A DNA stretch of 11,257 nt from a virus (IMGVR_UViG_2734482772_000014), one strand, 5' to 3'. Positions 496-11,257 are shown, counted from the stretch's first letter. Translations and numbers: made by a program. The notes: generated from the letters alone by a model not told the origin.

Positions 496-1167
496 TTATT
501 CCACCAGCAAAAATGGCGTTGCCCGGTCTATGACGTTGATGCCAATTAACGAGCTAACATTTCGACCATCCACAATGCTATCCCGTTCAAGCAAATGCGC
601 TATTTTTTCTACTTCATACCAGTATTGAGCCATGAGGGCTTTGGTCTTTTCAACGAGTTTAGAAAGCATTAACTCCCTGTTAATTAGCTTATCTGTAGCG
701 CAGATTAAATCGAGCATGTCATTTACGTTAGCCATGTCATAGCGATGAGGTAGCGAATACTTTTTGTTGAAAATATCGTTGTTTTCGTAAAGGGCTTCGC
801 TTACTGGTCCGGCGAGGGATACAAAAGCGGCCTTTTTTGCATCGCGCTTTATGCCATCCGCATAGTAACGTATGAAAGGGATAACTTTACCATTCTGCCC
901 AACTACACCAGATTTACTATCCCGCAAACGCCCGAGATCGTGGCTGTGAATTATGCTGTGTTTAACAACGCCCAAACACTTGGCCTCATGTACATGTTTG
1001 CCAGCAACGTAACCGTATTCATCCATAACGGCGATAACCTGTACATCTAAGCGAATAAGCCATGCAGCTACTGCATGTCCCGCTTCGTGGAATGCTACAC
1101 ATCGTTTACCATCACCTATCCAGTTATAGAACATTTCCGGTTTATATATCTGGTGAATGGCTACCAT
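496..1167 (-). CDS. Standalone zinc metallopeptidase-domain protein, FtsH/M41-like (223 aa), no AAA+ module
   Basis: HExxH motif as FHEAGHAV (FtsH has HEAGHA). Downstream SLAGPVSEAL and DMANVND resemble FtsH GGRLAEEI and ASNDI segments. SD GAGGG 6 nt upstream of ATG 1167..1165, stop TAA 498..496. Visibly lower GC than flanks (not computed). Confidence 0.55.
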   Translation of the reverse strand: MVAIHQIYKPEMFYNWIGDGKRCVAFHEAGHAVAAWLIRLDVQVIAVMDEYGYVAGKHVHEAKCLGVVKHSIIHSHDLGRLRDSKSGVVGQNGKVIPFIRYYADGIKRDAKKAAFVSLAGPVSEALYENNDIFNKKYSLPHRYDMANVNDMLDLICATDKLINRELMLSKLVEKTKALMAQYWYEVEKIAHLLERDSIVDGRNVSSLIGINVIDRATPFLLVE

Positions 1168-2287: not shown

Positions 2288-4729
2288 TCAATCATCACTC
2301 TGCCCGCTCTCCACACCGTAAGCACGGGGCATGAACTCCTCAGCCTTCTCGTTATAGCCAACGTTGGTTTGCGCTCTGCCGTTAATGCTTCTCGTCAGGT
2401 AGCTGGCTCGGTACTCTTTTGCTGCTGATTTTATGGCGCGTGAAAACTTATTGACGGAAAGCGGTTTACCCAAACCGTGATACTCCATAAACGCCAGATA
2501 AAGATGATAAAGATACGTCCTCGGCTCTGGCTGGCCTGCCCATGTACCTCCGCCCATCATCATGCCTTTGGGTTCGTTCATGAAAAAAAGCGCCGCACAC
2601 ATATCGACAACCGGATCCGTGCCGCGTTTAACCTCTAGCGCCTCCTGCGAATCGCGCTGCTCTAGTAATAGTTCCTTTGCTTTGTTCTGGTCGGAAAAGG
2701 TGGTTAGCAGGTGGCGGATAATCACCGGGATTTCTCGCCTGATTTTTGCTGTTAAATCCGGGTCTTTGTCTGCGTCTGATACCGGGTTATTAAACGGGAA
2801 TATCACGCGGCGGCGGGCAATGCCCCCGTTTCGCTCCGTGAATGTCATCGGCTCGTTATTGGTTGCCATAACAACGGCATTTATCACGGTTGTGAACTGC
2901 TTTTCATATTTCCCATCAATCTCTACCGGATCGCCGCCCGTAATGGCTTTAATCCCCGCACCCTCTCCAACATAGCGGGTCTGGTCAGGCATAATAATCA
3001 GGCTTTTTCCTACGAACTGCGCCCGTCCCCGTGCGGTGTCCAGCGTCATCATGCTACCGCTGGCGGTGTTGTGTTCACCTGCCAGCGTGGTTGCTATGCT
3101 GCTGAATACGGATTTTCCACTGCCGCCCTCGCCAGTTATCTCAATGAATAGCTGCCAGTCGTGACGCTTCGCCAGCACCATAAACAAGGCTGCTTTGATA
3201 CGCTCGGCCTTATGATGGTCGCCAGCCGTTGCATGATTCAGCCAACTGGTAAAATTGGGGGCGCTGGTGGTAATATTTTCCCCCGGCGCTGGCGGGGTGT
3301 AGGTGATCCCATTGTGGTTCATCAGCCAGTTACCCGGCGAATGGGCGGAAAACGTCTGCGTAGCGAGGTCATAAACGCCGTTATCAAAACCAATCAAATC
3401 CCCGCTCCGCTCACCAATTACCGGTATTTGCAGCTTCATGGTTGCGACAACCGATTTAATCCCCTTTTCGGTGTAGTGGGCTTCGTGCTCGTCGAAAATT
3501 GCCACCATAACCCTTTCTAATTCACTGTCTGGTAGCTTCTCCCATACGCCAGATTCGTAGCAGTAAACAGTGCCACTATCAGGGTTAACCGCCAACATAT
3601 CCCATCGAGATGAAAGCAACCGCGCTTTCTGGCTGGCTGCCATTTGTGCAATATCTCCGACTTCGGCTTTACGGCGGGATTTACCGCCCGCAATGGCCTG
3701 TAGTTGTGGTTTCACGGCTTCCCCCTGAATCTGGTACATCGAATCGTTAAACGCAGCCGTAGCGACTTCCAGCCCGTTTTGCTGGCGGTAGTCGTCCCAG
3801 TCGGCTTTGTAGTCTGTCGGCGGCAGCGCCACCCAGCCAGCCACGGATAAGGCGGCTTTCTCTGCGGCATCTTTGCCCGTGTTCGCCTGTTCGTCCTGTT
3901 GGTGGTCGTTATCTGCGGCAATGATAATTTGCGACTGCGGGTGTTTCCGGCGCATCACTTCGGCAACGGGTAGCAGGTTGCCCGCATCAATGGCGCACAC
4001 TGTCAGCGCGTCAGGGCGCATCAGGTGGACTGATAAAGTGGTTGCCAGCCCCTCGGCAATAATCACCGCCTGCGGCTGTTCCGGTGCGTTAACGGCGTGA
4101 TATGCCCCGCGCTTTGCTGAACCTGTCAGGAGTCGCTTCTCTCCCTGCGGTGTAATGGTTTGCGCTGCTGCCACTGCGCCGGATTCGTCCACCAGCTCCA
4201 GCAATAACGAACCATCCGGCATAACCGGATAGTTAAACCCGGTCAGCCCTTTTGATTGCAGGTAATCAGATTCTCCCTGTGTGGCACTCTGGCGCATTCC
4301 GGCATACAGACGGGCAAACGTAGCCCTTCGCTGCTCTGCATCCTCTGCTGCCTGTTTCTGGCGCTCCTGCTCACGCTGCTGGCGGTCAGCTTCCAGTTGC
4401 TCTCTTCTATGGCTCGCTGCCACCGGGTCGGTTTCCGCTGCCCGGTAATCAATACCCAGCACATCAGCGGCAAGCCTTGCCGCTTCTGTGGTGTCGCAGT
4501 TGTTCACCTTCTTAATCAGGTCTAAACCGTCACCAGCGCCACACTGATTGCAGATAAAGCTACCGCGCCCGTTGTCGTCGAATCTGAAACGGTCTTTTCC
4601 ACCACATGCAGGGCATGGAGAATGGCGGCGCGATGAATCAGGCACGTCGATAGACAATCCAGCCAGCACATAAGGCCAGCGCCCGGCGGCGGCACTGGTC
4701 ACTTCGCGGATAATGTCGATATTACGCAT
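2288..4729 (-). CDS. P4 alpha-like bifunctional primase-helicase (813 aa from ATG 4729)
   Basis: Zinc ribbon CPACGG...CNQCG; Toprim signatures (IIAEG..., IIIAADND); Walker A GEGGSGKS in the C-terminal helicase region. SD AGGGGG upstream of ATG 4729..4727, placed just after the stop of the 113-aa gene (4724..4722). Confidence 0.88.
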   Translation of the reverse strand: MRNIDIIREVTSAAAGRWPYVLAGLSIDVPDSSRRHSPCPACGGKDRFRFDDNGRGSFICNQCGAGDGLDLIKKVNNCDTTEAARLAADVLGIDYRAAETDPVAASHRREQLEADRQQREQERQKQAAEDAEQRRATFARLYAGMRQSATQGESDYLQSKGLTGFNYPVMPDGSLLLELVDESGAVAAAQTITPQGEKRLLTGSAKRGAYHAVNAPEQPQAVIIAEGLATTLSVHLMRPDALTVCAIDAGNLLPVAEVMRRKHPQSQIIIAADNDHQQDEQANTGKDAAEKAALSVAGWVALPPTDYKADWDDYRQQNGLEVATAAFNDSMYQIQGEAVKPQLQAIAGGKSRRKAEVGDIAQMAASQKARLLSSRWDMLAVNPDSGTVYCYESGVWEKLPDSELERVMVAIFDEHEAHYTEKGIKSVVATMKLQIPVIGERSGDLIGFDNGVYDLATQTFSAHSPGNWLMNHNGITYTPPAPGENITTSAPNFTSWLNHATAGDHHKAERIKAALFMVLAKRHDWQLFIEITGEGGSGKSVFSSIATTLAGEHNTASGSMMTLDTARGRAQFVGKSLIIMPDQTRYVGEGAGIKAITGGDPVEIDGKYEKQFTTVINAVVMATNNEPMTFTERNGGIARRRVIFPFNNPVSDADKDPDLTAKIRREIPVIIRHLLTTFSDQNKAKELLLEQRDSQEALEVKRGTDPVVDMCAALFFMNEPKGMMMGGGTWAGQPEPRTYLYHLYLAFMEYHGLGKPLSVNKFSRAIKSAAKEYRASYLTRSINGRAQTNVGYNEKAEEFMPRAYGVESGQSDD

Positions 4730-5063
4730 GGTTGCCCCCTGCCACGGTCGCGCCCATGTCTTTAACCATGCTTTGCCATATCTCACGCCCTACGTCAGTC
4801 AATCCGTCATTAGTGACGCAACGATCAAGAATCTCGATCCCCACGGTTTCCCACTGCGGGTAGGACACTTTCATGGCTGCCAGTGTGTAGCTATCGATCA
4901 GGCTGCGAACGCCTTTTACTCCATTGACGATTTCCACACGGATTTGCTGGCCTGCCGCGTCAACCATGAAGTAATTGCCACCATTGATAGCCGTAATGTG
5001 GTTATACAGTGCCGACGCATACTTATTCGCCAGCGCATTAAGTCGGAAATTTTTAGTAATCAT
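4722..5063 (-). CDS. Hypothetical protein (113 aa)
   Basis: SD GAGGGGG upstream of ATG 5063..5061; ends 4 nt before the primase SD/ATG. No recognised motif. Confidence 0.5.
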   Translation of the reverse strand: MITKNFRLNALANKYASALYNHITAINGGNYFMVDAAGQQIRVEIVNGVKGVRSLIDSYTLAAMKVSYPQWETVGIEILDRCVTNDGLTDVGREIWQSMVKDMGATVAGGNHA

Positions 5064-5072
5064 GTCGCCCCC

Positions 5073-5699
5073 TCAGTGCGCCAGCGGCATTTCAGGCCAG
5101 CCGTTTTCATCCAGTTCAGCTATAAAGCTGTTGTGAAGTTCAGCAAGCGTTTCACGCCCGAACGGGGTCAACTCGCCGCGCTCCGTGTCGATCATGGCCT
5201 GATAAAAAACAATGGCGTTCGCTGTTCCCTGCTCAATGCCGTAGCGCTCAACCATTGCGCCCTCCATGTTGTTAGCCATCGCCAGACGTTCCGCGAACGG
5301 GTAAACCACAATCCCCGCCGTGCCATTGGAGTAAATCGCCACCTGCGATGAAGTGCCGTCAGACTCAGTTACCGTGGTTGTGCCGTTTTCGCGCTTCATC
5401 TCAGAAATGAACGTCGCAGCAATCAGCCAGCGCCACATAGTGACGTTATGCTGCGCGGTGAAGTCGAACCAGCCACGCGCCCCGCCATCAGCAACGGCAA
5501 AATGAATGGCGTATCCGATATCTGGCTTATCGTCGTACTCTCCGGCGTCAAGGCCGTTCACGGCGCTCTCGTAGCTGATAAGAGCAACCTGCTCATATCC
5601 CCCGGCATCATTGCGGGTCATGATATTGACGCCGTGCGGTGTGGCTTCGGCGTGTAATAAGTCGGCATTTCCCGATTTAATGGTCGGTGCGTTGCTCAT
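5073..5699 (-). CDS. Hypothetical protein (208 aa)
   Basis: ATG 5699..5697 overlaps stop of upstream gene (ATGA). No recognised motif. Confidence 0.5.
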   Translation of the reverse strand: MSNAPTIKSGNADLLHAEATPHGVNIMTRNDAGGYEQVALISYESAVNGLDAGEYDDKPDIGYAIHFAVADGGARGWFDFTAQHNVTMWRWLIAATFISEMKRENGTTTVTESDGTSSQVAIYSNGTAGIVVYPFAERLAMANNMEGAMVERYGIEQGTANAIVFYQAMIDTERGELTPFGRETLAELHNSFIAELDENGWPEMPLAH

Positions 5700-5959
5700 G
5701 CGCTGCCCTCCGCATCAATTCTGGCTATATCGACAATCGTCAGGACTTTACTCAGCCAGCAATACGCGATGGCTGCTTGCTCAACTTCGAGGAGTGGTAA
5801 TAAATCGGTCATAACGTGAGCCAGCCCATTGCGGGCGCGGGTCATGCGTTCTGCTGTTCGGTCTGCCAGCGTAAAATCATCCGGGTAAGCCTGCTCGCGG
5901 GATAACATCGCTTCGGCTTCCAGCTCTGCCGGGTGGCGATAGATGGTAGTTATGTTCAT
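5696..5959 (-). CDS. Hypothetical protein (87 aa)
   Basis: ATGA overlap with upstream gene at 5959..5956. No recognised motif. Confidence 0.45.
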   Translation of the reverse strand: MNITTIYRHPAELEAEAMLSREQAYPDDFTLADRTAERMTRARNGLAHVMTDLLPLLEVEQAAIAYCWLSKVLTIVDIARIDAEGSA

Positions 5960-6270
5960 TTGCCCGCCCTCCCTTTGGCTTCTTTTTCACTGATTGAGCG
6001 CAAGAATGCGGCGTTTGCAGCGATATCGTTCAGCGCCCGCGCAAATTCTCCGATATGTCCCAGCATTGCGCCTAATCTGTACATATCAGCCTTAGCGATT
6101 TCCTCCGGGTAGCCATCGCTACCAGCCGCCCAGAACATGAGGCTACCAATGGCACTTACGCCCAGCATTAAATCATCCACGGCATCACTGGCGCGGCTCT
6201 CAATTCCGTTCAGATCATCAGGTGTACAACCATCAAATTTGCAGGACACTAAATCGTCATACATGCTCAT
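5956..6270 (-). CDS. Hypothetical protein (104 aa)
   Basis: ATGA overlap at 6270..6267. No recognised motif. Confidence 0.45.
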   Translation of the reverse strand: MSMYDDLVSCKFDGCTPDDLNGIESRASDAVDDLMLGVSAIGSLMFWAAGSDGYPEEIAKADMYRLGAMLGHIGEFARALNDIAANAAFLRSISEKEAKGRAGK

Positions 6271-6446
6271 GCCGCCACCTCACGAACGCGGGTAATCTGG
6301 ATGTGGGAAAGGCGTTCATTTCTGGCCTGATTTAGCGCCTCAGCTTTGGCGCTGATCGCGCTGCGGGCGTCAACGATATAAACGAACTCGACTAATTCGC
6401 CGCTCCGGGCGGTGGCGCATCCTGCAACACGGAAGTAATTAAGCAT
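6267..6446 (-). CDS. Hypothetical small protein (59 aa from ATG 6446)
   Basis: ATG 6446..6444 preceded by AGGGGG; overlaps the stop of the Icd-like gene by 8 nt (ATGCTTAA). The ORF track's longer version begins at a TTG. Confidence 0.4.
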   Translation of the reverse strand: MLNYFRVAGCATARSGELVEFVYIVDARSAISAKAEALNQARNERLSHIQITRVREVAA

Positions 6447-6631
6447 GTGCGCCCCCTGTGCGAATACGTCCGGCAAAAAAGCAAACGTGATCCCGCGCCA
6501 GAATGCGGCGGGCTTCCTGCTCGGTCTCTGCGGCGATATGGTGAATTTTGGCGGTAATTGTCGGGCAATCGCGGCGAACTGCGGCGATAATCCAGATAAA
6601 TTGCGGTTTTTGGGTAGGGGTAGTAGCCATT
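6439..6631 (-). CDS. Icd-like small protein (63 aa, MATTPTQKPQFIWIIAAVRR...)
   Basis: Strong SD AAGGAGG 7 nt upstream of ATG 6631..6629. Size and position (immediately after a C4/CI-type leader) match Icd of P1/P4-like elements. Family call from memory. Confidence 0.45.
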
Positions 6632-6654
6632 ATGGCAGCCTCCTTTGTGTTTAA

Positions 6655-6845
6655 GGAGTCACCGCATAAGGTTCCAATCTTAATAGTGGCGGTGACGTTA
6701 GCAGGGTTGGAACTACCGGACACAAAGGAAACCGGCCTACGCGAACGTAGCCCCACTAACGCCACCATAGATACAGTACGGGCAAGGCCGCTGATTTGAT
6801 GTGCGTGGTGATCGGACACAAAAAAAGACGCTTTCGGCGTCTGTG
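6655..6845 (-). ncRNA. Putative C4/CI-type antisense-RNA leader
   Basis: On the minus strand, two direct repeats UUUGUGUCCG(A/G)U (plus coords ~6811-6824 and ~6717-6730) are complementary to the Icd-like RBS ACACAAAGGAGG (plus 6641-6653). No protein-coding signal with an SD in this interval. Boundaries approximate. Confidence 0.3.
6819..6842 (-). terminator. Short hairpin + U7 (AGACGC-CGAAA-GCGUCU-UUUUUUU): terminator or leader structural element
   Basis: Minus-strand stem-loop followed by 7 U. The stem is only 6 bp, so it may instead be part of the antisense-RNA leader. Confidence 0.3.
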
Positions 6846-7039
6846 TCGCCCTTAGTGTGTTCGGGGTTCCAATCCCGGTTGCTGATTTTGCAGCAACGCT
6901 TGGACTATAACAGCTTTTCTCTGCTAGGTGGTCATACCAGATAAAACCGTAACCCTTTAAGAGTTTTTCCTGTGCACGGCTCACCATCTTTTTGTTGAGG
7001 GTAAGCGCCTCGCGTACTGGTAACGGAACTCCGGGCGCT

Positions 7040-7085
7040 GCGGTATCAATATCAGGTTTTATAAGGTTGTAAGGGTTAACATTTG
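7040..7085 (-). promoter_or_regulatory. Putative promoter/operator region with twin GTTAAC palindromes
   Basis: GTTAAC-ATTT-GTTAAC at 7065-7080, followed on the minus strand by TTACAA...TATAAA/TATTGAT candidate -35/-10 elements. Sits in the non-coding gap upstream of the antisense leader. Confidence 0.25.
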
Positions 7086-7129
7086 TTAACAGGCTAGCCA
7101 GATTAAAGGCTTCTTTCTGGGCGGCAGGT

Positions 7130-7312
7130 TCATTCAGTATCACGGCGCACCTCCACGAACTCATTAACGAATCTCTCCAAAGGCTGAACACATGGCGACT
7201 GATAGCCCTCGCGGTAAAAGGTCACTCGGTTATGCTCGACGCGCTCAACGGTCACTACAGCCCCGTGCGAATCCTTGTAACGGCTTCCCGGCATCGGATT
7301 GTGGTTACGCAT
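7130..7312 (-). CDS. DUF4222-like small protein (60 aa)
   Basis: SD GGAGG 6 nt upstream of ATG 7312..7310; start overlaps the antirepressor stop by 8 nt (ATGCGTAA). Pattern GSRYKDSHGAVVTV...VTFYREGY...C...LERFVNEF resembles DUF4222 from memory. Confidence 0.45.
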   Translation of the reverse strand: MRNHNPMPGSRYKDSHGAVVTVERVEHNRVTFYREGYQSPCVQPLERFVNEFVEVRRDTE

Positions 7313-8114
7313 GGTTTACCTCCAGACGCTTAGCGAGCCAGCGTTGCGACAGGCGGGTGAGTTCTCCTTTGCGCTGCTCATATTCCATGCCCATATCAAT
7401 TAACGTGATATTGGTGCTTTCGAGATAGGCGAGGTGTTCAAGCTGTGCTGCGTTCATGCTGTCCCGTGGTTCGCCAGTAATGCCATTTGCCTGCGCCCAC
7501 TGCTTCGCCGTCATGCCACCCAGCACGATACGGGCGATCATGTTGCTCTCGTTGCTGTAGTGGCGAGCCTGCGTCTGTTTACCCTGTTCTGCGCGGGCGC
7601 TTTCCAGCGCTACGCACATCGGTTTAAACAGGTTTGCGGCACCGATACGGGCTTTTAGCTGGCGACGATAGCGGGCGGCGATTTCAGGCACGCTACGCTG
7701 TAGTGCTTCCTCGCACTGGATGAAATAACGGCGGATAGCGCGACCCTGCTCGTTGCGTTCAACCATTGCCACTTCTTTAGCCATATCCAGCGATAGCAGA
7801 TAATCATGTTCTATTTGTTGGCGAGTTTTTGCGCTCGCCAGTTTTGGCGTGCTCAAATTTTCAACACGGATAAAATCGGTTCCGGCAATAAAACCGTACT
7901 GGTCAATTCGGCCTTTAATCCAGTTAGTGAAGTCGCGGCCCACCCCCAGCGCCTTATGCAAGGCTCTGGCGCTAACAATATTGGTTTCACGCCCGCCAAT
8001 GCGTCCGGCAATAACGGGAACAATAGCGGCAAAGTCGTCGCCGTTAATTACTCCCGTGTTAACGTTGGGTTGCGGGGCGGCCTCAGAAATTAATCTGCTT
8101 TTTTCGATAGTCAT
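7305..8114 (-). CDS. AntA-like phage antirepressor (269 aa)
   Basis: N-terminal VPVIAG...VSARALHKALGVGRDFTNWIKGRIDQYGFIAGTDF matches the AntA/AntB N-terminal domain pattern (VSAR.LH..L.V...F..WIK.RI..YGF....DF). SD GGAG upstream of ATG 8114..8112. Confidence 0.6.
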   Translation of the reverse strand: MTIEKSRLISEAAPQPNVNTGVINGDDFAAIVPVIAGRIGGRETNIVSARALHKALGVGRDFTNWIKGRIDQYGFIAGTDFIRVENLSTPKLASAKTRQQIEHDYLLSLDMAKEVAMVERNEQGRAIRRYFIQCEEALQRSVPEIAARYRRQLKARIGAANLFKPMCVALESARAEQGKQTQARHYSNESNMIARIVLGGMTAKQWAQANGITGEPRDSMNAAQLEHLAYLESTNITLIDMGMEYEQRKGELTRLSQRWLAKRLEVNHA

Positions 8115-8127
8115 ATTTTCGGCTCCG

Positions 8128-8559
8128 TTATGCGGCGGTAAATGCGTCTGGGTAGAGGTTGAGAATGTCGGCTATTTCAGACTTACTAAGCCCCTGATAA
8201 CCCCCTGCGGCGGCGTTGCTGTTAACCAACTGGATAACTCGCATCACATCACCACGGCCCACAAATCTGTAGCGTAGGTGTGCGCCAATGCCATCGGGGT
8301 TCTTTTCGTCTATACGCTCAAGCTGAATATCAAGCCTGCGCTCTAACTCGCTGGCGTAGTTCCTTCCAGACGAAAGGCGGCAATAACGCAGAATATCGTT
8401 TTCTGTCCATCCCTCTATACCAGTACGCAGCATATAGACGCGGGCGCGGTGTTTCTTTGGGGTACGCCTAGGTACTTGTACCGGGCTGGTGGTCGGCGTA
8501 ATATCAGACGTGCGAATATCTGAGTTAGCCGCCTGTAATGGGCGGTTTTTCTTTTTCAT
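8128..8559 (-). CDS. Hypothetical basic protein (143 aa from ATG 8559), coupled to alpA
   Basis: ATG 8559..8557 overlaps the alpA stop (ATGA). Lys/Arg-rich N-terminus suggests nucleic-acid binding. Family not recognised. Confidence 0.5.
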   Translation of the reverse strand: MKKKNRPLQAANSDIRTSDITPTTSPVQVPRRTPKKHRARVYMLRTGIEGWTENDILRYCRLSSGRNYASELERRLDIQLERIDEKNPDGIGAHLRYRFVGRGDVMRVIQLVNSNAAAGGYQGLSKSEIADILNLYPDAFTAA

Positions 8560-8762
8560 CAAGCCACCTTTCCCCGACGTTCTGCCAGCCAGTTGTTAAT
8601 CTCTACCGCATCAAAGGCGGTAATCTTCTCGCCCAGCTTTACCGGACGTGGTAGTGAACCGTTTCTTACTTTACGGTCGATGGTGGATACACTAACGCCC
8701 AGTAATTCAGCCAGGCGGAAGCGTCTGATATAGCCTTTTGTAGGAATAGTGTCGGTGTTCAT
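8559..8762 (-). CDS. alpA: AlpA/Vis-family phage transcriptional regulator / excisionase-like (67 aa)
   Basis: Winged-HTH signature RLAELLGVSVSTIDRKVRNGSLPRPVKLGEKITAFDAVEINNWL typical of the AlpA family; position next to a P4-type integrase. Confidence 0.8.
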   Translation of the reverse strand: MNTDTIPTKGYIRRFRLAELLGVSVSTIDRKVRNGSLPRPVKLGEKITAFDAVEINNWLAERRGKVA

Positions 8763-8764
8763 GC

Positions 8765-8811
8765 TTCCCGTAACCTCTTAGCGATAGTTGTTGCTTCGTT
8801 ACGGGAGGAAG
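8765..8811 (-). promoter_or_regulatory. Inverted repeat spanning the alpA 5' UTR/RBS
   Basis: TTCCCGTAAC (8765-8774) and GTTACGGGAgGAA (8798-8811); on the minus strand the proximal arm covers the likely SD of alpA. Confidence 0.35.
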
Positions 8812-8828
8812 TATCTGTACATATATGA

Positions 8829-8860
8829 ACAATAAAAAGGCACAGTAATGATACTGTGCC
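8829..8860 (-). terminator. Rho-independent terminator for the 321-aa gene
   Basis: Minus strand: GGCACAGUA-UCAU-UACUGUGCC (perfect 9-bp stem) followed by UUUUUAUU; about 20 nt after the stop at 8877. Confidence 0.7.
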
Positions 8861-8876
8861 TGAATAGTTAGCTACT

Positions 8877-9842
8877 CTACCCCTTACCGTTGGCGGCAGC
8901 ACGTAAGTGTCTCAAAATCACATCTTCATTTGTGATTGCTAACGGTGGAATTTCGTCTTTATGAGCCACTATGCAATCCCGCCACTTCTCAGGGCTTATT
9001 TCTTTCTTTTTGCCACGGCATTCATCAGGATACTTTGACAAAAGATATATTGCAGATTTGAAAAGTTTTTCCCTGTTTTCAGCATGTCTCTCGGCATTAT
9101 GGTTGCTATTTTTTATTTCAGGTATTAGTTCCTGTTCTACCGCCATTTCGTATCGTTTTTTGCTCTTAGCTGCGTCAAAACTTCCATTAACCTTTGCGTC
9201 ATGAAGGTATTCTAAATCAGCCTTTGTTATATAAATGTTTTTATCTGACAGGCTACTCAGGTGAATTTGGGAACTTTGCATTTTGAATTTATATAGATCA
9301 CAATCAAATGTTGCTTCAAGTCGCACATATGGTTCTCCACATTCTTGTGAATGATAATGTCGTGTTGTTCTACCGCGTACACGCAACAATCCACATGCAA
9401 TTGATTTTCTTACAATAAAAGAGTTTTTGCCAATTTGTTCAAAAACATTTTTATTGTCGCTGTCTTCAACTGTCAGTGGTTTATGTGCATAAAATAGCTC
9501 ATAAGCACCGCTTTCAGATGCTGGGATATAAACTTCGTTGCTTGCGCTGGTAATAAGAAAAGGAAATGTAAACCTTACTTCTTCTGGGTACATAAGTAAT
9601 AAATCAGTTATAAAATTAGCATCTTTTTTGAAGTGGATGGTGGCATCAGATTCAATGAAATCAAGAAAGTCAGCATAGACATAAAAGTCTATATGTAGTC
9701 TATCTTTCCAATGCCATATATCATCAATTTCACAATTTAATAATTTTGATGCTCGCTCTATCGTGCAGTAGTCCAAAGGTGGAATACCTGATTCCTGCCA
9801 TAAATTTCTATGCACCACAGTTGTTTCATGAGAGTCGTTCAT
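8877..9842 (-). CDS. Orphan hypothetical protein (321 aa), AT-rich cargo between integrase and alpA
   Basis: SD AAGGTGA 7 nt upstream of ATG 9842..9840, stop TAG 8879..8877. Markedly AT-rich versus neighbours (by eye). No Walker A, HExxH or obvious hydrophobic TM stretch; C-terminal third is Lys/Glu-rich. Confidence 0.65.
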   Translation of the reverse strand: MNDSHETTVVHRNLWQESGIPPLDYCTIERASKLLNCEIDDIWHWKDRLHIDFYVYADFLDFIESDATIHFKKDANFITDLLLMYPEEVRFTFPFLITSASNEVYIPASESGAYELFYAHKPLTVEDSDNKNVFEQIGKNSFIVRKSIACGLLRVRGRTTRHYHSQECGEPYVRLEATFDCDLYKFKMQSSQIHLSSLSDKNIYITKADLEYLHDAKVNGSFDAAKSKKRYEMAVEQELIPEIKNSNHNAERHAENREKLFKSAIYLLSKYPDECRGKKKEISPEKWRDCIVAHKDEIPPLAITNEDVILRHLRAAANGKG

Positions 9843-9875
9843 TGCGTCACCTTTTACGCTGCGCCTTATTTTGTG

Positions 9876-9930
9876 ATTGAGCCAGGCGGTAAGGCTTCCC
9901 GCTTTTCGCCCCGTCGAGCTAGGCTCAATC
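9876..9930. repeat. Inverted repeat GATTGAGCC...GGCTCAATC in the int-cargo intergenic region
   Basis: 9-bp arms at 9876-9884 and 9922-9930 with a GC-rich ~37-bp spacer; no U-tract follows on the minus strand. Confidence 0.5.
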
Positions 9931-9937
9931 TATTCAG

Positions 9938-11197
9938 TTAGTTCGCCCTTCTGAGAGGCGTTACGTTGTAGTCTTTTCCGCTTTCCAGTGCCACCAGCAG
10001 ATCAGCCCACTGTGCCAGTGCTGCTTTACGCTCATCAAAATACTGATGGCGGTTATAAATCCCCTCTACGCCCTTAATGCGATGATTGAGGCATCGTTCC
10101 GCCACGACAGGATCAACACCCAACGCTGCTAAATGAGTACGTGCGGTGCGTCGGAAGTCGTGAATCGTGAAATTAGGCACATCCGGCATTTCGGCGCGAA
10201 CCTTAGCCAGTGCTACGGGCAAAGTGCTTTCCTGAATATGTGGGATCATTCTGTTTTGCATCTTCCTGGCTGGAAGCACCCATGCGCTATTACATGAAAA
10301 GGTGTGTAGCTCTCTCAACCATTCAACGGCTGGGGAAGGTAGAGGTATATCAATAGGGTCTCCGTTTTTGCTGCGTTCTTCCGGCAAATGCCATACCGCA
10401 CCATCTAAATCAAACTCTTCCCATCGTGCGGCGCATAACTCCATCTTACGAACGCATAGTGCCAGCAATAGCTTAAATGTCAGTTCGTTCTGGCGGCTGA
10501 ATCCTTTTGCGGTGCGCATAGCCTCGAATAGCCTGATAAGCTCATCGCGAGTTAGCCAACGGTCGCGGGAAACCTCTTTACCACCAGCATCAGATACTTC
10601 AAACGCTGAACAAGGGTTTATCTCCAGAGCGTGGCGTTTTATCCCGTAGTCAAAGATACGGCGTGTCCAGCGTAATACATCTGTTGCTATCGTTGGTGCT
10701 CCTCGGTCAACGATACCTTTCAACATGTCGTCAATGTGGCGTGGCTTAACGTCCTCTACCTTCATATGCCCAATGCAGGGGTTAATATCCTTATCAATTC
10801 TCCGGCGAAGGATATCGGGATGTTTCCATCTCGGAAGTATCTGGCGCTCGAAGTATTCGGAGGCCAGATCTGAAACACGCATGGCGTTTTTCTCAGCCTC
10901 CATTTTTGCCAGTGCTTCAGCTTTTCGTTCCTGTTTCTCTGCTGCTACGTCATAGCCAAGAGCAACTCTGGCTGACAGCTCTTTGGCTGTCTCTCTGGCC
11001 TTTGATAGTGATAGCTCGCTATACGAACCAATTAGCATGGCGCGGGACTTCCCTGCGAGTTTATAGCGGAATCTCCATGTGGGGGTTTTGTCGGCTTCAC
11101 GGTAACGTAGGTATAAACCGTTACCGTCTGCCCGCCCCTCGAATCGCTCTCCGCTCTTAATCCATGCGCGGATCTGCATGTCTGTTAGTTTTGGCAT
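9938..11197 (-). CDS. int: P4-type tyrosine integrase (419 aa from ATG 11197)
   Basis: N-terminus MPKLTD...GLYLRY...WRFRYKLAGK...LIGSY is characteristic of P4-family integrases; C-terminal HDFRRTARTHL (HxxR) and GIYNRHQYFDERK (catalytic Tyr region). The ORF stays open to the window edge (11257), but the MPKLTD start is the conserved one. Confidence 0.88.
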   Translation of the reverse strand: MPKLTDMQIRAWIKSGERFEGRADGNGLYLRYREADKTPTWRFRYKLAGKSRAMLIGSYSELSLSKARETAKELSARVALGYDVAAEKQERKAEALAKMEAEKNAMRVSDLASEYFERQILPRWKHPDILRRRIDKDINPCIGHMKVEDVKPRHIDDMLKGIVDRGAPTIATDVLRWTRRIFDYGIKRHALEINPCSAFEVSDAGGKEVSRDRWLTRDELIRLFEAMRTAKGFSRQNELTFKLLLALCVRKMELCAARWEEFDLDGAVWHLPEERSKNGDPIDIPLPSPAVEWLRELHTFSCNSAWVLPARKMQNRMIPHIQESTLPVALAKVRAEMPDVPNFTIHDFRRTARTHLAALGVDPVVAERCLNHRIKGVEGIYNRHQYFDERKAALAQWADLLVALESGKDYNVTPLRRAN

Positions 11198-11227
11198 TTT
11201 GCGAATATCCAAACTTTGAATAGGGGG

Positions 11228-11251
11228 TGTACCCAAAGCAATGTACCCAAA
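11228..11251. repeat. Direct repeats TGTACCCAAA x2 upstream of int
   Basis: Copies at 11228-11237 and 11242-11251 (14-bp period), within 50 bp of the int start. Candidate Int arm-type sites or int promoter operator. Confidence 0.4.
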
Positions 11252-11257
11252 CCTCAT

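Follow-up and report, generated by a model that had tools for sequence, protein, structure and literature searches.

A large, uncharacterized family of three-module acidic proteins occupies the int-alpA junction of satellite-type elements

In this study, we have analyzed an 11,257-nucleotide (nt) stretch of viral DNA (IMGVR_UViG_2734482772_000014; hereafter, the window) and found that the one gene lying between its P4-type integrase gene, int, and the regulatory gene alpA is an allele of a protein family that is confined to conserved flanks and whose alleles are exchanged with sharp breakpoints. The sequence data make a solid case that the product, of 321 amino acids (aa), is a functional, modular, soluble, acidic, and apparently nonenzymatic protein. 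The original prediction, made from the window alone, had described an AT-rich orphan gene, swapped horizontally as cargo and plausibly encoding an antiphage system. We postulate that the product of this gene, here called the slot gene, is a nonenzymatic recognition protein that acts at the interface between phage and island and gives interference or defense, and we would put the probability of this reading at roughly 0.4. Variable satellite cargo beside int is a known kind of feature and has been a productive source of new phage defense biology. As far as the literature searched shows, the family itself, its three-module architecture, its confinement to the int-alpA junction, the limitation of the slot to a single gene, and the coupling of the slot to the int-alpA RNA leader are undescribed.

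RESULTS AND DISCUSSION

Position and signals of the slot gene

The open reading frame (ORF) lies where it had been predicted, alone between int and alpA on the minus strand, and is identical to the RefSeq call WP_001000004.1, a hypothetical protein; int, the ORF, and alpA follow one another in this order on that strand (Table 1). The same arrangement was found throughout the family: among loci with enough sequence, the integrase gene immediately preceded the slot gene in 35 of 35 and alpA followed it in 42 of 42, in each case on the same strand, with a gap between the slot gene and alpA of typically 100 to 115 nt. These counts cover 49 distinct proteins and come from a biased sample, many of the loci having been retrieved through the RNA motif described below. 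Seven distant members, however, were found by exact protein identity and hence independently of context; a P4-type integrase was directly upstream in six of them, the contig of the seventh being cut, and AlpA was directly downstream in six. The backbones around these distant members were AntA or Bro-N phage-inducible chromosomal islands (PICIs), a P2-capsid-bearing element, Toprim/DUF927 islands, and a BREX island. On the whole, the family belongs to islands with a P4-type integrase, most of them phage satellites of the PICI type.

Two of the loci are worth recording separately. At locus L016 (1513 to 7547), a family member and AlpA stand at the int end of an island in which a YagK/YfjJ-type gene comes next, together with BrxR and a DUF499 (BrxC-like) gene. 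Besides satellites, the int-X-alpA module, in which X is the slot gene, therefore also fronts a BREX-carrying island. Locus L019 (CP031371.2, Klebsiella pneumoniae), a 21.8-kb circular sequence deposited as a nonmobilizable plasmid, encodes a family member, AlpA, an antirepressor, and a DUF4222 protein and is probably an excised circular island or a misbinned contig.

The expression signals that had been read around the gene were confirmed. Its Shine-Dalgarno (SD) sequence ends 4 nt short of the ATG and is kept at loci L003, L004, L005, L006, L007, and L011. The terminator on its 3' side consists of a perfect 10-bp stem (8838 to 8861) with a 4-nt loop, followed by TTTTTATT on the minus strand; at other loci, hairpins of differing sequence lie 3' of the slot gene, and the 70-nt tail reached -12 kcal/mol or lower in 26 of 47. 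Neither a consensus sigma-70 promoter nor a terminator was present in the interval between int and the ORF in the window.

The gene is also more AT-rich than its neighbors, as had been noted: its GC content is 36.9%, against 53.7% for positions 2288 to 8762 and 49.9% for int, and its GC content at third codon positions (GC3) is 29%, against 48% for int and 59% for the primase gene. This is a trait of the whole family. In 15 of 15 loci, across hosts, the slot gene had a GC content about 8 to 21 points below that of the adjacent integrase gene, and the composition is therefore no sign of a recent foreign origin; we rejected recent import as its explanation. Within the ORF, an 18-nt inverted repeat (9412 to 9429 and 9440 to 9457, 89% complementary; region 9404 to 9476, minus strand) overlaps the only two sigma-70-like matches of the region. 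It is probably a by-product of AT-richness, since the promoter count is below the expectation from shuffled sequence.

Exchange of alleles between near-identical elements

The proposal that the gene is horizontally swapped cargo was supported when the int-alpA slot was compared across related elements, where differing genes were found and the gene had been exchanged between otherwise near-identical elements. As in a hotspot, the int and alpA flanks were 97 to 100% identical around slot genes that could not be aligned. For example, between the window and locus L003, identity is 98 to 100% over int and over the leader as far as the ATG, drops to about 35 to 45% (chance level) over the ORF and terminator, and is back at 97 to 98% once the alpA leader is reached; the cassette's right breakpoint is just upstream of the hairpin in this leader. 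Compared with locus L002, nucleotide identity of 67 to 82% is kept in the C-module only. Sister elements at the same chromosomal site, yicC, carry family alleles of 316, 281, or 307/312 aa or an unrelated DUF6387 gene, and one AlpA protein, WP_001090781.1, occurs unchanged beside three different slot alleles. Since alleles whose N- and C-modules are only 24 to 28% identical adjoin identical Int and AlpA proteins and a 97 to 98% identical alpA leader, the slot gene behaves as an autonomous cassette and not as a partner coevolving with Int or AlpA.

Exchange also takes place within the gene. Where the C-modules of two family members were at least 70% identical, the middles were less than 30% identical in 43 of 54 pairs, and where the N-modules were at least 70% identical, this was so in 182 of 211 pairs; the N-, middle, and C-modules thus reassort within the family. 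The natural alleles found in isogenic backbones (321, 316, 281, and 307 to 312 aa, plus DUF6387) make up a ready-made series.

Not every occupant of the slot belongs to the family; the others were DUF6387, a 295/262-aa type, a 228/218-aa type, and one 386-aa ORF. None of the slot proteins had a Pfam match, DUF6387 itself excepted. Both DUF6387 and YfjH of Escherichia coli K-12 (283 and 318 aa) resemble the slot gene in position and size and in being functionally uncharacterized, and DUF6387 is preceded by the same int-alpA RNA leader, but neither shows detectable homology to the family (hhalign probability below 1%; both were rejected as homologues), and yfjH lies on the opposite strand. DUF6387 adjoins AlpA also in ICEKp258.2 (PMC10763509). 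A second unnamed slot family, of 262 to 295 aa, follows the int-alpA RNA at loci L028, L034, L042, L117, L125, and L128. Its proteins start with KEWLTLKEASERL...SIADCLQLALDK..ITIS, which resembles the N-module pattern of the main family, and they match no Pfam or PADLOC model; a shared N-domain was considered for the 295/262-aa proteins (L028 and L034), but the alignment, although in register, was not significant (hhalign E value of about 0.04). The slot gene of the characterized PICI EcCIMP1, EcCIMP1_002, was likewise rejected as a relative, being much smaller and unrelated.

Three modules under purifying selection

The architecture of the protein was read from a conservation map over 126 members and an AlphaFold2 (AF2) model with a mean predicted local distance difference test (pLDDT) score of 85.7; an earlier model from 20 sequences had been poor (pLDDT 62.6). 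The N-module is the best-conserved part of the family (entropy of about 1.7 to 1.9 bits) and is modeled with pLDDT scores of 92 to 97 as a strand (residues 25 to 27), two helices (28 to 34 and 39 to 47), and two further strands (54 to 57 and 64 to 71). This predicted beta-alpha-alpha-beta-beta topology and an in-register profile alignment liken it to AlpA, Xis, and HTH_17 (helix-turn-helix [HTH]) domains, although the hhalign E value of 7e-4 against AlpA came with a probability of only 26%. It differs from these domains in scoring below the Pfam gathering threshold (no match for the query, and a match to HTH_17 with an E value of 0.005 for 1 of 127 members), in being fused to about 250 further residues, and in its charge: the N-module has a median net charge of -2, with negative values in 74% of members, whereas AlpA proteins carry +4 to +8.

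The middle module is hypervariable, with a median pairwise identity of 12% and many gaps, and it is the most acidic part, with a median net charge of -9 and a value below 0 in 95% of members; the whole protein has a median of -8.5 across the family. Long beta-hairpins are modeled at residues 134 to 190. A linker with predicted helices at residues 207 to 219 and 224 to 238 leads to the C-module, which is nearly invariant within one large Enterobacterales subgroup. Compared with loci L002, L006, L007, and L008, the C-module had a proportion of synonymous differences (pS) of 0.75 to 0.88 and of nonsynonymous differences (pN) of 0.11 to 0.19. Because its synonymous sites are saturated, it is conserved as protein and not as DNA, and we rejected both a DNA element, such as an alpA promoter, and recent recombination as explanations of its conservation.

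For the whole gene, pN/pS was 0.22 to 0.33 against orthologues from Salmonella, Enterobacter, and Cedecea, all of which are in an int-X-alpA-AntA context; these values indicate purifying selection. Within the allele lineage, the pN of the middle module is 2 to 4 times that of the N- and C-modules, and the middle also changes about 4 to 10 times faster than int or alpA in most of the lineage comparisons. A variable center under diversifying exchange is the signature of a recognition interface in genetic conflict.

A large family without a named relative

The term orphan did not hold. A word index gave 48 homologues and an exhaustive profile search 578 representative clusters, so that the family comprises at least 578 clusters at 50% identity (E value of ≤0.001), almost all of 270 to 380 aa. 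The allele in the window was found in 77 of 5,426 complete E. coli genomes, and a further 127 share the flanks only; sister alleles of the family occur in many more E. coli genomes than these 77. Large as it is, the family is without a name, a domain annotation, or a structural relative.

The absence of recognizable motifs that had been noted in the 321-aa protein was borne out by inspection of its sequence, in which no Walker A, HExxH, or CxxC motif was present; there is also no transmembrane segment, since the maximum 19-residue Kyte-Doolittle mean is 0.84. No Pfam, NCBIfam, PHROG, or meaningful PADLOC family matched the protein. The defense model search (PADLOC-DB v2.0.0) returned PDC-S31 alone (E value of 0.002, 15.6 bits), which we rejected as a chance match because the query was the only one of 127 family members to show it, the other 126 having none. 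When PDB sequences were searched with profiles of the whole family and of the N- and C-modules, only a spurious match, to the His tag/TEV linker of 3k21, was returned, and it was also rejected.

A conserved RNA leader in front of the slot

The inverted repeat that had been noted upstream of the gene is real (9-bp arms at 9875 to 9883 and 9922 to 9930, 38 nt apart) and proved to be the outer stem of the int-alpA RNA, Rfam family RF02996, of which the window carries a full-length member above the threshold. In a scan for the invariant core of the motif, a downstream ORF could be called at 23 genome or viral loci and, after filtering, at 27 metagenome loci; the motif loci comprise the window, L003 to L008, L011, L020 to L037, and 33 metagenome loci, and of 120 matches in a 17-mer metagenome scan, 87 were dropped as chance because they had no motif context. 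An ORF of 218 to 386 aa starts 19 to 59 nt (mostly 31 to 37 nt) past the motif core, and it belongs to the slot family in 19 of the 23 genome or viral loci and in 19 of the 27 metagenome loci. The leader, including the SD sequence, is conserved up to the ATG, whichever gene comes next.

RF02996 is listed by Rfam as a small RNA (sRNA). It stands here at a fixed distance in front of the slot gene, on the same strand, as it does at about 50 other loci, and this fixed spacing suggests that it acts in cis, as a leader or attenuator or by forming the 3' end of the int transcript, and not solely in trans. A run of U residues follows the outer stem at loci L006 and L007 and in the Rfam consensus; the copy in the window has none. 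These U-run variants, together with the lack of a promoter or terminator between int and the ORF in the window, raise the possibility that the motif may act as a conditional terminator or leader of the slot gene. When the intergenic regions were searched for a shared operator motif, nothing was found besides the RNA motif, the terminators, and the hairpin of the alpA leader. The locus thus gives an orphan Rfam motif a genomic context, namely, that of the conserved leader of the int-alpA slot.

A proposed recognition protein at the phage-island interface

According to the reading that we favor, the slot gene is probably transcribed from the direction of int, by way of the int-alpA RNA leader, and its own terminator ends this transcription before alpA. 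Alleles are exchanged between islands as units, each consisting of ORF and terminator, by recombination in the conserved flanks. The hypervariable acidic middle is envisioned to bind a variable, probably basic, protein of a helper or competitor phage, and the conserved N- and C-modules would link this event to a conserved partner. Island and host would both benefit from the resulting interference with phages or defense against them.

Several lines of evidence were counted in favor of this reading. The autonomy of the cassette with respect to Int, AlpA, and the alpA leader supports interference or defense directed at phages, and its own terminator and conserved leader fit expression in the resident state together with int. 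Also on this side are the replacement of alleles as cassettes in near-identical backbones, the shuffling of modules, the filling of the same slot by unrelated single genes, and a middle that is fast at nonsynonymous sites within a gene under purifying selection. In addition, according to PMC11364771, which cites Fillol-Salom 2022, the 5' (int) end of PICIs can harbor immune systems, which supports an interference or defense role for an int-proximal gene. The element, moreover, already has an RNA immunity system, described below.

Other results weigh against a defense role. The slot always held one gene, of about 220 to 390 aa (about 0.7 to 1.2 kb), and no recognizable or multigene defense system was present in the loci examined; PADLOC models matched none of nine slot proteins (four family alleles together with DUF6387, YfjH, and the 295/262-aa and 228/218-aa types) and, PDC-S31 aside, none of 127 diverse family members. 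These members had no Pfam or PADLOC domain and no recognizable effector domain. A Foldseek search of the pLDDT 85.7 model against PDB and BFVD gave a best E value of about 0.1 with a template modeling (TM) score below 0.15, and the family was absent from 50,697 phage records. Furthermore, among all the loci gathered, it was seen in the int-alpA slot only. Most defense genes roam between contexts, and such confinement to a single slot is therefore unusual for defense.

The comparison with known hotspots cuts both ways. Hotspots of P4 and P2 carry variable defense cargo (Rousset 2022, PMC9122126), and like these and the int end of PICIs, the slot is variable between conserved core genes, holds unrelated genes, shows recombination in its flanks, and has AT-rich cargo. 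Classical defense hotspots, however, contain recognizable and often multigene systems, and the slot differs from them not only in its single, unrecognized gene but also in that one family, found nowhere else, fills most of the loci, with an RNA leader in front of it.

It is doubtful, although worth stating, that the family and its leader together form a so far unrecognized specificity module, that is, a leader-controlled, single-gene allelic cassette whose acidic domain would recognize phage proteins. If this were true, Gram-negative PICIs could have in this family their missing helper sensor, and the helper dependence of alpA would be explained; alternatively, the family could be a new class of nonenzymatic, stoichiometric immunity or counterimmunity proteins. 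In either case, the orphan int-alpA RNA motif would gain a cis-regulatory function.

Alternative explanations

The mechanism by which Gram-negative PICIs sense their helper phages is not explained in the literature searched, and one explanation of the slot gene, which we regard as unlikely, is that it fills this role as a regulator of island induction analogous to Stl of the Staphylococcus aureus pathogenicity islands (SaPIs). The middle would then bind a helper protein, the conserved modules would act on alpA, AlpA, or Int, and a swap of alleles would change the helper specificity. The map position is that of stl and of rpr in PICIs, between int and the regulatory/replication module, and the int-X-alpA synteny is absolute across differing backbones. 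As in Stl and Rpr, an HTH-like N-module, here resembling the winged helices of AlpA and Xis, is joined to a divergent remainder, alleles differ between otherwise similar islands, and no member has an enzymatic domain. Unlike stl and rpr, however, the slot gene is codirectional with alpA and is terminated before it, the N-module is acidic and so unlike DNA-binding AlpA, and no sequence or fold similarity to Stl or Rpr was detected. The alpA leader does not covary with the slot gene; the same leader and AlpA stand beside alleles whose N- and C-modules are only 24 to 28% identical, and unrelated proteins can fill the slot. In EcCIMP1, the slot holds only a small unrelated ORF, yet alpA induction is helper dependent. 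Finally, an element that already has C4/isrK RNA immunity would have less need of a protein master repressor.

Equally, it seems improbable to us that the slot gene encodes a counterdefense or establishment factor, coexpressed with int on entry, whose acidic and variable product would neutralize host defenses. Expression of int is needed on entry into a new cell, and the slot gene lies 3' of int with no terminator or consensus promoter between them. The strong acidity of the protein (median net charge of -8.5) and its absence from defense databases also speak for this reading, and hypervariability with allele swapping would fit an arms race with diverse host defenses. Known antidefense proteins, however, are mostly smaller and simpler than a three-module protein of about 300 aa with a winged-helix-like N-module, and the PDB and BFVD searches revealed no similarity to ArdA, Ocr, or other known inhibitors. 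One unrelated occupant of the same slot, YfjH of CP4-57, was recovered as a blocker of the retron-Sen2 toxin RcaT (bioRxiv 10.1101/2020.06.22.160242), which speaks for counterdefense as a use of the slot, but YfjH is not homologous to the family and its gene is on the opposite strand.

Very unlikely, in our view, is an accessory role to the integrase, in which an Xis-like N-module would contact Int or att DNA and modulate the direction of recombination. The slot gene does always come immediately after a P4-type integrase gene on the same strand (35/35), and its N-module aligns in register with AlpA/Xis-type winged helices; nonetheless, the N-module is acidic, an identical Int is found beside highly divergent alleles and unrelated slot genes, and a hypervariable middle would have no obvious purpose. 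The Xis-like role is also already taken by AlpA, which is required for excision in EcCIMP1 (PMC11773190). The least credible explanation is that the gene is cargo without a role related to phages or is decaying and is retained only through linkage. The lack of any functional annotation is what it has in its favor. The selection data argue strongly against decay, every module being under purifying selection; in addition, length and architecture are conserved over 578 clusters, the AF2 model is confident (pLDDT 85.7), and the leader, SD sequence, and terminator are likewise conserved.

Features of the window and the surrounding element

Table 1. Features at and around the int-alpA slot of the window
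Feature	Position	Strand	Basis or description
P4-type tyrosine integrase, left flank and recombination anchor	9938..11257	minus	Arm-DNA-bind_3, Phage_int_M, Phage_integrase
int-alpA RNA (RF02996)	9863..9929	minus	cmscan 60.6 bits (gathering threshold, 35.8), E = 1e-11, model positions 1-71 of 71
Shine-Dalgarno sequence of slot gene	9847..9855	minus	AAAAGGTGA, read from sequence
Slot gene	8877..9842	minus	One allele of an uncharacterized three-module family at the int-alpA junction
N-module, residues 20-71	9630..9785	minus	Predicted AlpA/Xis-like winged-helix-type domain, acidic
Hypervariable acidic, beta-rich middle, residues 72-200	9243..9629	minus	
DLxIT motif (202-206) and helical linker, residues 201-244	9111..9242	minus	Conservation map, model
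C-module, residues 245-321	8880..9110	minus	Small helical domain, pLDDT 94-98
Intrinsic terminator insulating slot gene from alpA	8829..8861	minus	10-bp stem with 5 GC pairs, T-run
Hairpin/inverted repeat of alpA leader	8766..8806	minus	9-bp perfect repeat TCCCGTAAC ... GTTACGGGA
alpA, AlpA-family regulator, right flank	8559..8762	minus	PF05930, E = 1.9e-8

The element had been called P4-like. This holds for its integrase, which is of the P4 type, but not for the element as a whole, which has an int-alpA-primase order and no sid, psu, or delta gene. The int-alpA-pri order is the architecture of Gram-negative PICI-type satellites (PMC6092414, PMC13612085), and by its gene content, we assign the element to this type. 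In the window, int, alpA, AntA, Ash, and the P4-family primase are all encoded on the minus strand, and genes for structural or lysis proteins are absent. E. coli CFS3292 carries this DNA (99.9% identity) between yicC and dinD, in an element of about 12 to 13 kb, where int, the slot gene, and alpA are followed by a 143-aa gene, AntA/AntB, DUF4222, an Icd/Ash-like gene, several small ORFs, the P4-family primase, an M41-like peptidase, and, at the far end, PerC.

Matches to the C4 antisense RNA (82 bits), isrK (75 bits), and the c4 a1/b1 targets (54 bits) lie at 6685 to 6910 on the minus strand, inside or beside the Ash/Icd-like ORF, and are also present at loci L002 and L013. On the strength of these matches, the C4/isrK module is a P1/P4-type RNA immunity module, here within a PICI-type element.

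The inverted repeat of the alpA leader ends 3 nt before the alpA ATG (8762), and the SD sequence falls where the loop meets the 3' arm. Of 24 distinct alpA leaders, 23 have an equivalent stem, of 7 to 12 bp, with compensatory changes (CCCATAAC/GTTATGGG, CTCGTAAC/GTTACGAG, CCTGTAAC/GTTACAGG, TCCTGTCATG/CATGACAGGA, and TATCCCCC/GGGGGATA), and the repeat could be an RNA hairpin that controls alpA translation or an AlpA operator. An AT-rich palindrome at 8816 to 8831 (TGTACATATAT / ATATATGAACA), between the terminator and this hairpin and near the right breakpoint, could be part of the alpA promoter or operator.

At locus L003 (E. coli CV839-06), a gene of the reverse transcriptase family, possibly of a retron, lies at 11276 to 12235 between pyrE and slmA, a few kilobases from the island; the other strains in the comparison lack it. 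At the distal end of the element in the window, adjoining PerC, a 223-aa ORF (496 to 1167, minus strand) has a HEAGH zinc metallopeptidase motif and a weak match of about 20 residues to Peptidase_M41; it is annotated in RefSeq as a "peptidase M41 family protein" and could be accessory cargo at the 3' end.

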